A stretch of DNA of 32,000 bases from Candidatus Thorarchaeota archaeon. Its GTDB lineage: Archaea > Asgardarchaeota > Thorarchaeia > Thorarchaeales > Thorarchaeaceae. Numbering within the stretch: the first letter of the stretch is position 1; the number at the start of each line of letters is the position of its first letter. Made by a program: the position numbers and the translations under genes. The stretch covers positions 75,836-107,835 of the forward strand of contig PRDJ01000057.1 in assembly GCA_003345555.1 (NCBI GenBank), given 5' to 3'. The notes under the pieces were generated by a model. It had not been told where the DNA came from. It saw only the letters and a program-made list of their open reading frames with translations, and ran no database searches. Shown here in pieces: positions 2,620 to 13,806 of this stretch.

Positions 2620-3069
2620 CTACTCAGCCGGGAGGTCGACTGTGCCGCCCTTGTTCTGAATCTTCTCTCTCGCACCGGGAGAAATCGCCTTAACGCCGGT
2701 AAGGTTCAGCTTGCGCGTCACCCTGCCCGAACCTAGAACCTTGTCAGCACCAAGACGGGCGACATCAACCGTGTAAGCACTTCCGGACTTGGTCGCGAGT
2801 CCTCGGCTAACAAGTCGGTCCAGAGACTCGTCAATCTCGCCTACATTGATGGTGGAGGGAAGTTTGAGGATGCTTTCCGGTCTCTTGAAACCATGCTTGC
2901 CAAAGTAGTGTGGATTGAGCTTCATGGTCCTCATTCTGTGATGTTTGTCAGTTCCGGCGTTGCCCATTCCACCTCGCTGACCCGCAGCACGATGACCCTT
3001 TGTATCGCCATAACCCGCGGTACGCAATCCTCTCAATGAACGAATCCTTTTCGACTTCCGCGTGTACAT
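2620..3069 (-). CDS. rpl15: 50S ribosomal protein uL15
   Basis: GHRAAGQRGGMGNAG, YFGKHGF, INVGEI, KVLGSG motifs. Confidence 0.97.
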   Translation of the reverse strand: MYTRKSKRIRSLRGLRTAGYGDTKGHRAAGQRGGMGNAGTDKHHRMRTMKLNPHYFGKHGFKRPESILKLPSTINVGEIDESLDRLVSRGLATKSGSAYTVDVARLGADKVLGSGRVTRKLNLTGVKAISPGAREKIQNKGGTVDLPAE

Positions 3070-11913: not shown

Positions 11914-12378
11914 TTAACCCACCTCCTCCAGAACGATCTCTATGTGAGATGTATCCTCATTATAGGCTGTGCTTCTTCCAAACGCCCTTGGAATGAATTT
12001 CTTGTAGGTCCTTCCTCTCTGCGTCGCTGCATGAACAATCTTGAGCCTGTCGATATCAAGACCCTTATTGTCGGCATTGCTCTCTGCGTTCTTCAGTACT
12101 TTGAGAATCTGCTGCGATGCGTTAACTGGATGTCCTCCGGAAGGCCATTTCTTCATTCCTGCATGATGTGGTCTCTGCTTCCGATGACGCTTGTAAGGAA
12201 GCCACGTCTTTTCTTCGATTACGCTCTCGAGCAGCTTGGTTGCCTTGTCGAGCATCATGCCCCGGATAGCATTGCATATCTCCCTAGAGTGCTTGGGAGA
12301 GCACCGCATATTCCTGCCACTGGCTATCGCTGTCTTGTCGGGGTCTATCCCGAGTACGGAATATCCGTATGTTGGAAT
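11914..12378 (-). CDS. rpl22: 50S ribosomal protein uL22, predicted AUU start
   Basis: SPKHSREIC, GMMLDKA, SHIEIVLEE. The conserved N-terminus (I)PTYGYSVLGIDPDKTAIASGRN extends 23 codons upstream of the track ATG to an ATT at 12378, with an in-frame TGA 3 codons further up. Confidence 0.93.
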   Translation of the reverse strand: MPTYGYSVLGIDPDKTAIASGRNMRCSPKHSREICNAIRGMMLDKATKLLESVIEEKTWLPYKRHRKQRPHHAGMKKWPSGGHPVNASQQILKVLKNAESNADNKGLDIDRLKIVHAATQRGRTYKKFIPRAFGRSTAYNEDTSHIEIVLEEVG

Positions 12379-12598
12379 CTTGCCTCACTTCCGGTGTGAT
12401 TGTTATCCTGTGGGCACATTGACATCCGTCATGTGCTGTATCCGCTCGTCTTGGTGGTTTCAACGGCCACTCCAAGACCTCACTGGCACACGTCTACAGA
12501 CCGTTCGCGCGAGCAGAACGAGAGGCCTGCACTGGCTCCAAGGTCTCGAAACAGTCGTTATCCCGAGAGCGACTTGTCGCTTCCGGTCGAGTTTATCT

Positions 12599-12607
12599 TT
12601 TAAAGAT
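12599..12607 (-). promoter_or_regulatory. Putative TATA box (ATCTTTAAA) of the rpl22 operon
   Basis: The main AT-rich element in the 313-bp gap upstream of rpl22; part of the dyad ATCTTT-T-AAAGAT. Confidence 0.55.
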
Positions 12608-12691
12608 TACCAATTATCACACTTGCCCTATGTCTTTGGTATGTTCCTACGGGCAGGCAGGCCAAACGAACAACAGTGAGTGCACAAACCT

Positions 12692-13084
12692 TCATGGATT
12701 GTCGCCGAATTCGTGTGTGACACGCCTTAGGGCAGCCGCCGTTACCGAGTCGTCAATCAAATCAACACCCGACTGGGTCAAGGTCGCTCTCACAAAGTGA
12801 GTCCCAGTGGATAGCACATCGACAAGGCCTCGTTCCTTCAGTTTCAGGAGACTGGCCAGAATGATCTGTGTCAATTCGTCGTCTGTCATTTCGAACCCCT
12901 TGCCCGGAGTCTGAAGTGTCTCGCACATCCTCAGGACAGCTTTTGTGCTGCTCAGAAAACGCCGATTGCTGTCATAGGGATTTGTGTGCAACCAGAGAAG
13001 CACAATGAGATCGATAACGCTGACATTCATGTGCGGATGTCTCTCAAGTGTTCTCTTCGCAACAAGCTCGACAATCGGCATCAC
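12692..13084 (-). CDS. Hypothetical protein, winged-helix-like
   Basis: C-terminal pattern LLKLKERGLV...ATLTQSG resembles a wHTH recognition helix plus wing. GTGA overlap with the upstream ORF. Confidence 0.6.
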   Translation of the reverse strand: MMPIVELVAKRTLERHPHMNVSVIDLIVLLWLHTNPYDSNRRFLSSTKAVLRMCETLQTPGKGFEMTDDELTQIILASLLKLKERGLVDVLSTGTHFVRATLTQSGVDLIDDSVTAAALRRVTHEFGDNP

Positions 13085-13806
13085 TGCTCACCACTGCCAA
13101 CCAAGGCTACTACTCCCGGCTTGGGCTCAAAGATCAATCCGGAGTGCATCAATCTGTCCAGCGAATCCTCGACAGATGATTCCCGCACTCCCTGCGACGT
13201 AAATGTCTTCACAAGGTCCTCAACCTTACAGCTGCCGCCCGCTTTTCTCACAGCTGCTACAATATCCCTTCTGATGTCGGTCTTGCCTTTCACTTTCTCT
13301 GCCGTAGGTCCAGCAGATGGCACCATCTGGATAGTCCACGGACGTGGGAAAACAAGCAGACCATTCTCAGCTAGCCTCGATAGCTGCTCTTCAACCCAAG
13401 GCCAGTCTAGCCTATGCTGTCCACAGAGTTCGGCTATCCTGTCGAGCGAGCAGGGCTTATCCTTTGCTTCTCTCTCAAGAAGCTCCAACAATCTTTTCCT
13501 CTTTCCGGGTGGAGGCACTTCCTCTGTCTGAGAGGAAACCTCCTCGACTGTCAATGTCTCATTGGGCATGAGTGCCCGGAGCCTCTCCTTTGATTTTTCG
13601 ACCGCTAGCTGGAATTCATTGTCACGCTTCGCATTGAATTCTCTCACTGCAGCTGAGGCAGCGTCAGGGCTATCGAAGACAGCGCAGGATGCTTCTGTAA
13701 TGTCAATAATCCTGCCGCAGTAGCTGCACCGTCGGTGTTTCTGACCGGCCGGGGCATTTGTGAAATTCCTGCATTGTGGACAAGCGAAGACGAGGTATGA
13801 TGTCAA
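13081..13806 (-). CDS. Zn-ribbon (DUF1922-like) protein with two C-terminal winged-helix domains
   Basis: CPQC...CSYC; two repeats of L.RL...GL...P (LSRLAENGLLVFPRP and LDRLMHSGLIFEPKP). Confidence 0.7.
   Translation of the reverse strand: MTSYLVFACPQCRNFTNAPAGQKHRRCSYCGRIIDITEASCAVFDSPDAASAAVREFNAKRDNEFQLAVEKSKERLRALMPNETLTVEEVSSQTEEVPPPGKRKRLLELLEREAKDKPCSLDRIAELCGQHRLDWPWVEEQLSRLAENGLLVFPRPWTIQMVPSAGPTAEKVKGKTDIRRDIVAAVRKAGGSCKVEDLVKTFTSQGVRESSVEDSLDRLMHSGLIFEPKPGVVALVGSGEQ

Follow-up and report, generated by a model that had tools for sequence, protein, structure and literature searches.

We analyzed a 32,000-nucleotide stretch of DNA from Candidatus Thorarchaeota (hereafter, the window), in which the gene for ribosomal protein uL22 is separated by a gap of 313 nt from an uncharacterized gene upstream; all features described below lie on the minus strand. 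The operon has the order uL22-uS3-uL29-Rpp29-uS17-uL14-uL24..., and Pfam confirmed the genes downstream of uL22 as uS3, uL29, the RNase P protein Rpp29, uS17, uL14 and uL24. The gene upstream of uL22 (13084-12692) encodes 130 amino acids and had no Pfam match, and its protein ends in ...RRVTxEFGDNP in most genera. This gene is one of two syntenic uncharacterized genes at 12692-13806 upstream; the product of the other has 241 aa, with a CxxC...CxxC motif at its N terminus and a weak winged-helix match at its C terminus. The same contig carries the RNase P RNA gene (G000:C57:71391-71734), some 4.1 kb ahead of the window and close to the Rpp29-encoding operon. In most prokaryotes uL22 is an internal gene of an S10-type cluster and is normally preceded by uS19. 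Here uS19 was found on another contig (G000:C46:1965-2219, L118): the usual uS19-uL22 adjacency is broken in this family, and uL22 has gained a promoter and a leader for itself.

The uL22 reading frame is open only from position 12384, with an in-frame TGA two codons before an ATT at 12378-12376. Among 65 distinct leaders of relatives, this codon is ATG in 61 and GTG in 3, and it is ATT in the window genome, which reflects either a genuine weak start or a one-base assembly error. Three-frame translation of the 313-nt gap yielded no ORF in any frame, and a tRNA scan of the gap found no tRNA. We also performed an Rfam 15 search, which gave zero matches at the gathering score in the window and zero at E values up to 10 across positions 12200-12800. 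The motif described below matches no described RNA family and is previously undescribed, consistent with the uncharacterized RNA that was suspected here in an earlier reading of the window's letters (the original prediction).

We identified uL22 in 40 related genomes and based the family comparison on 24 other genomes plus the window (25 seed sequences). The gap upstream of uL22 could be aligned in the 24 other family genomes over approximately 110-150 nt at 69-87% identity; uL22 protein identity in the same genomes was mostly 69-79%, with 95% in the closest relative. Three blocks of the gap are conserved, namely a TATA box, a core and CCGGAAGTGAGG just ahead of the start codon. The usual upstream gene was present in 21/24 relatives and replaced in the other three (L005, L011 and L021), where the element still adjoins uL22. 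The features of the leader, all on the minus strand, are as follows:

12598-12604 (read 12604-12598), minus strand: TATA box, TTTAAAA in the window and TTTAAAT in most relatives, conserved in alignment A1
12573-12576, minus strand: predicted transcription start, placed from archaeal TATA spacing and the fixed TATA-to-rod spacing
12455-12571 (read 12571-12455), minus strand: rod-like hairpin domain of ~117 nt (P1c, P1a/b, GG/CC, P2 and P3), from model R1 and covariation
12571-12565 with 12461-12455, minus strand: P1c, the outermost helix, which covaries in relatives and is degenerate in the window (4/7 pairs)
12542-12558, minus strand: 5' strand of P1a/b, with GAGACCT at its 3' end
12532-12539, minus strand: GG plus the 5' side of a near-invariant internal loop, GGAGCCAG in the window and GGAAGCAG in the consensus, with columns invariant or nearly so in alignment A2
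12495-12531, minus strand: P2, enclosing P3 and the apical loop, from covariation and seed conservation
12485-12494, minus strand: 3' side of the internal loop plus CC, GACGTGTGCC, with invariant columns A, C, G, T, G, C and C
12463-12479, minus strand: 3' strand of P1a/b, with AGGTCTT at its 5' end
12414-12436 (read 12436-12414), minus strand: second hairpin (P5 of a P4/P5 domain), variable in sequence and conserved in structure
12383-12394 (read 12394-12383), minus strand: conserved block CCGGAAGTGAGG with an imperfect Shine-Dalgarno (SD) site, found in 25/25 family sequences
11914-12378, minus strand: uL22 gene, start ATT at 12378-12376

We derived the structure with RNAalifold and inspection, and then tested it against controls in which the 3' partners were slid by 1-3 columns and against shuffles. 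Among the 25 seed sequences, 90.2% of cells paired, compared to 39-44% in the slid controls; 20/38 pairs showed compensatory changes, and none of 500 shuffles reached any of the five measures. We performed the same comparison on 85 hits realigned with the covariance model R1, 63 of them distinct, and found that 92.6% of cells paired (34-47% when slid), that 24/38 pairs were compensatory and that 147 cells carried double changes, as opposed to 43 in shuffles. The original prediction had proposed that the uL22 operon has a long, structured 5' leader, and the covariation analysis bears this out: the leader is conserved, and its stems covary among related genomes.

Within the rod, P1a/b (12558-12542 with 12479-12463) comprises 17 pairs, 12 of them with compensatory changes, and pairs in 92.5% of cells. 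The adjoining GG (12539-12538) pairs with CC (12486-12485) in 99% of cells, P2 (12531-12525 with 12501-12495) is 99.3% paired with covariation at 4/7 pairs, and P3 (12520-12515 with 12507-12502) is 91% paired. P3 closes a 7-nt apical loop, GCTCGCG in DNA letters (12514-12508), that is invariant in 21/25 seed sequences. Invariance or near-invariance is seen in the internal loop (consensus GGAAGCAG opposite ACGUGUGCC), at three P2 pairs and in the apical loop, while the stems drift by compensation. A conserved run of G-U pairs in P1a would be mismatches if read on the opposite strand, and the RNA strand is therefore the uL22 strand. The minimum free energy fold of the window's rod is the same structure that was found by comparison; single-sequence folding energies, however, were at chance level (z +0.18 for 12376-12590 and z -0.13 for the rod alone), so that the real pairings can be told only by comparison with relatives. 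The rod region showed no 3-base periodicity, the length of its core is not constant modulo 3, and stops occur in every frame of most sequences. The rod region is non-coding, and together with the ORF-free gap this agrees with the earlier statement that no convincing protein gene lies here.

To characterize the distribution of the motif, we searched genomes with R1. The window genome gave a single match of 116 bits, and one copy each was found in 81/86 genomes of the family, covering 16/16 genera, with E values of 1e-22 to 1e-40. In a sample of the phylum at a completeness of at least 85%, R1 matched every family genome (37/37) and none of those from 22 other Asgard families (0/113); an order-level search added one genome only. 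The single genome available from the sister family (L027) had no R1 match, and its uL22 leader was strongly structured (z -3.65) with a different shape, retaining the GCUCGCG heptamer. The lack of an R1 match and the different leader shape in this genome show the motif to be young, and its loops could serve a different partner. Judged from sequence comparison, the stretch is a real structured RNA motif that heads the uL22 operon and is restricted to one Thorarchaeota family.

The four pairings listed in the original prediction are all present in the window, and the comparison with relatives sorts them. CGTTC/GAACG (12502-12520) is the conserved hairpin P3, and GCACAT-GAC/GTC-A-ATGTGC (12414-12436) is the form taken in the window by a second hairpin whose structure is conserved. 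The pairing of GAGACCT (12541-12547) with AGGTCTT (12474-12480) had been offered as an alternative to a local hairpin; it is real, and rather than an alternative it is conserved and among the best-covarying helices (P1b). The local hairpin itself, GTCTTG-GA-GTGG/CCAC-CAAGAC (12448-12478), had been taken as the main form, and this did not hold up: it is not conserved (59.4% paired versus 58.0% in shuffles), occurs only in the window and its closest relative, and competes with P1. The idea of a switch between mutually exclusive pairings found no support either, as the 3' strand of P1 paired with downstream sequence no better than with shuffled sequence (mean z +0.1, 65 leaders), and the leaders showed no consistent partner for the SD. 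We also considered a small 5' hairpin, GUCG/CGAC, that overlaps P1. This hairpin is 85% paired with weak covariation, and we preferred P1a because it keeps pairing in leaders in which the small hairpin breaks (L004 and L009); GUCG/CGAC may be a transient alternative to P1.

The first T of the TATA box is 32 nt from the first paired base of the rod in 40/64 leaders (range 28-34). An archaeal TATA box is usually centered at about -26/-27. Given this usual spacing and the fixed distance from TATA box to rod, transcription is predicted to start approximately 2 nt before the rod, near 12575, where the start had been expected. Neither a second TATA box nor a conserved U-run was found between the rod and uL22 in the family alignment (65 distinct leaders), and no conserved U-run terminator follows the structure in the same leaders.

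Between the rod and the SD, an extended hairpin is present in nearly all genomes, and the sequences of these hairpins are unrelated. When compared to dinucleotide shuffles, the rod-to-SD linkers of 65 leaders had a mean z of -2.75, with 74% of them below -2; the window's own linker scored -0.86. At the position of a G in the canonical site, the SD block (CCGGAAGUGAGG) retains an A. The 16S rRNA 3' end reads CACCTCCT (CACCUCCU) in G003, from the same genus, and in G022, another family genome, and the downstream genes uS3, uL29, Rpp29, uS17 and uL14 use GGAGG-type sites. The SD block is conserved beyond the need of SD pairing, with a mismatch to the canonical anti-SD that is absent from the downstream genes. 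We did not find a consistent partner or conserved helix sequestering the SD or the start codon in the family leaders. Two further observations concern these sequences. The SD block also resembles a segment of 5S rRNA, CCGAAGUUAAGCC. The 16S 3' end of G003 (L033, ~3010-3065) carries about 29 extra bases (AGAAGATGAGATTTCCTCACCTTCCATCA) between GGATGGA and ATCACCTCCT, which are absent in G022 and may be a terminal insertion or a small hairpin expansion.

Based on its position, its pattern of conservation and precedent, we propose that the element belongs to the class of ribosomal-protein leaders, that is, a cis-acting structured 5' leader that would give feedback control of the uL22 operon via a candidate operon-encoded ribosomal protein; we give this reading a roughly even chance of being correct. 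Transcription would start about 30 nt after the conserved TATA box, and the first ~117 nt would fold as a long irregular hairpin with its base at the 5' end of the mRNA. The rod would display the invariant internal loop and the invariant 7-nt apical loop GCUCGCG, and the second hairpin, free of sequence constraint, would bring the rod to within approximately 10-15 nt of a conserved and, as we read it, deliberately weak SD. An operon-encoded ribosomal protein in excess over rRNA could then bind the invariant loops and lower either translation initiation at uL22, with downstream genes affected via coupling, or the stability of the mRNA. As the first gene of the operon, uL22 encodes the default candidate ligand.

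We looked for mimicry of rRNA in the leader, comparing it to the genome's own 23S rRNA, a 16S rRNA of the same genus and the genome's own 5S rRNA. No mimicry was found by shared 8/9-mers, by fuzzy or antisense comparison, or by R1 with filters off, for which nothing scored better than an E value of about 5 against 23S, 16S and 5S. Several other roles for the loops were considered and set aside. An exact reverse complement of the apical loop GCUCGCG, namely CGCGAGC, occurs in loop D of 5S rRNA, as would suit a kissing interaction; the genomes with altered apical loops (G005, G020 and G014) show no compensating change in 5S, and the match is taken as coincidence. (G005 itself has a 5S rRNA of 152 nt (L117), in which ~32 nt are inserted behind the GUUAA segment and which falls below the Rfam cut-off.) As a guide RNA, the loops had only one 9-mer with a mismatch antisense to rRNA, which is chance level. 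For an archaeal H/ACA guide RNA, there was no convincing rRNA-complementary pocket, no conserved ACA at 14-15 nt and no K-turn. Finally, inspection of A2 for a K-turn or L7Ae motif found no conserved tandem G-A pairs and no GA/AG arrangement in the invariant loop; the loop adjoining P1b, which is UU opposite AGUGA in the window, is variable in sequence as well as in length.

The leader does resemble one known RNA. A BLAST search of one leader against E. coli genomes gave no match at that database size, and we then compared the leaders with E. coli 4.5S RNA (ffs) directly. Many leaders are collinear with it through CUGUUU, (C)GGAAGGAAGCAG and CGUGUGCCGG, the last of which we take to be located in the distal region of 4.5S RNA. 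L004 and L005 each have an identical run of 13 nt, and L015 has runs of 11 nt and 10 nt. Chain-alignment z scores were 4.6-6.3 in 4/6 leaders tested, and block shuffling of 65 leaders gave a mean z of 2.7, as opposed to approximately 0 for reversed 4.5S RNA and for 5S. The window's own copy has diverged at both 4.5S motifs and scores at chance level (16 versus 15.3 expected). A canonical signal recognition particle (SRP) RNA of ~311 nt was found elsewhere in 30/30 family relatives searched. It was not found in the window's assembly, which is 93% complete and from which it is merely missing. The SRP RNA of this family is somewhat atypical, as half of the 30 copies do not reach the Rfam gathering score; its helix-8 strand has the sequence GGAACAGCC, and its loops are 5-6 nt long (L120-L125). 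The leader showed no significant similarity to Thorarchaeota SRP RNAs (z -1.5 to 1.9). We rejected the possibility that the rod is the SRP RNA itself, given the canonical copy elsewhere, the covariation of the would-be 5' loop side in P1b and the lack of any match to an SRP model. The 4.5S resemblance may be treated as an unexplained lead and not as a classification.

We considered three other explanations, and we hold each of them to be unlikely. The first is that the rod stabilizes the 5' terminus, guarding the operon mRNA against 5'-to-3' exonucleolytic decay or directing its processing, and senses no protein level. The rod base, ~2 nt from the predicted 5' end with promoter spacing fixed, fits such a role, as does the finding of neither SD sequestration nor an alternative fold. 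A stabilizer, however, needs a stem only, whereas over 16 genera the stems drift by compensatory change and neither the internal loop nor the 7-nt apical loop varies, which makes this explanation improbable.

Alternatively, the rod could be a small RNA gene in its own right, under a separate promoter, its product stable or trans-acting and possibly SRP-related, with uL22 expressed via read-through or processing. The structure begins at the predicted transcription start, the closed rod is about the size of 4.5S RNA, and the collinear resemblance points the same way. Against a separate gene, the leaders have no conserved U-run or second TATA box between rod and uL22, and the element is always at a fixed, short distance from uL22. 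A possible SRP relationship is likewise countered by the SRP RNA present elsewhere in all relatives searched, which has no likeness to the leader, by the absence of an Rfam SRP model match and by the chance-level score of the window's copy. We regard a separate small RNA gene as doubtful.

The element could also be a cis-regulator with another kind of ligand, either a small molecule, as in a riboswitch, or an RNA-binding protein such as SRP54 or a translation factor. Invariant loops combined with absent rRNA mimicry favor such a ligand, as does the GGAAGCAG motif, which the leader has in common with the SRP RNA helix-8 strand bound by SRP54 (E. coli ffs). However, the 5' side of the would-be SRP-like loop varies and covaries with its distant P1b partner, so that an SRP54 site is not kept, and Thorarchaeota SRP RNAs themselves read GGAACAGCC at that strand. 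There is also no evident small-molecule logic for an archaeal ribosomal operon, and a ligand other than a ribosomal protein seems to us rather improbable. A more specific version, in which the rod would be an SRP-RNA-derived or SRP-RNA-like module read by an SRP54-type targeting component or a translation GTPase, is a long shot. If it were true, synthesis of exit-tunnel proteins (uL22, uL29 and uL24 line the ribosome exit tunnel) would be coupled to the state of co-translational targeting, a control that to our knowledge has not been described in any domain.

That these are functionless chance hairpins in a GC-rich spacer, as the chance-level single-sequence folding energy might suggest, is refuted by the family-wide conservation, the 24 compensatory pairs and the one match per genome at E values of 1e-22 to 1e-40.

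We therefore return to the candidate ribosomal-protein leader. We know of very few cis-regulatory RNAs in archaea, and for Asgard archaea, which among prokaryotes are the closest relatives of eukaryotes, our literature search found no described example. The motif heads the largest ribosomal-protein operon, its invariant loops can be mutated and the candidate ligands are few. Feedback on ribosome synthesis in Asgard archaea thus becomes testable in vitro, even without a genetic system. The new leader arose at the site where the ancestral S10-type cluster split before uL22.

How the leader compares with known systems depends on the system. Like E. coli 4.5S RNA, it is a long hairpin of ~115-125 nt, and the two share collinear runs. 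Unlike in 4.5S RNA, the leader's GCAG strand leads to an extra hairpin (P2/P3) and does not pair back, and its would-be symmetric loop lacks conservation on the 5' side. Among archaeal ribosomal proteins, Methanococcus L1 and Sulfolobus L7Ae repress their own mRNA via a structured site near the 5' end, and each of these sites imitates, in short form, the site in rRNA (the L1 stalk and the K-turn, respectively). In the Thorarchaeota leader, in contrast, the loop next to P1b is variable and lacks conserved tandem G-A pairs. Ribosomal-protein leaders are known in archaea for the S15, eL15 and L4 operons (PMC7247131). Compared with these and with the bacterial S10/L4 and spc/S8 leaders, the Thorarchaeota leader is unrelated in sequence and shape, showed neither rRNA mimicry nor an SD-sequestering helix in our comparisons, and is placed before uL22. 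It is nonetheless, like the bacterial leaders and the archaeal S15, eL15 and candidate L4-Archaeoglobi leaders (PMC7247131), a covarying 5' UTR RNA of a multi-gene operon, and like them it is lineage-restricted, with invariant loops that appear suited to protein binding.
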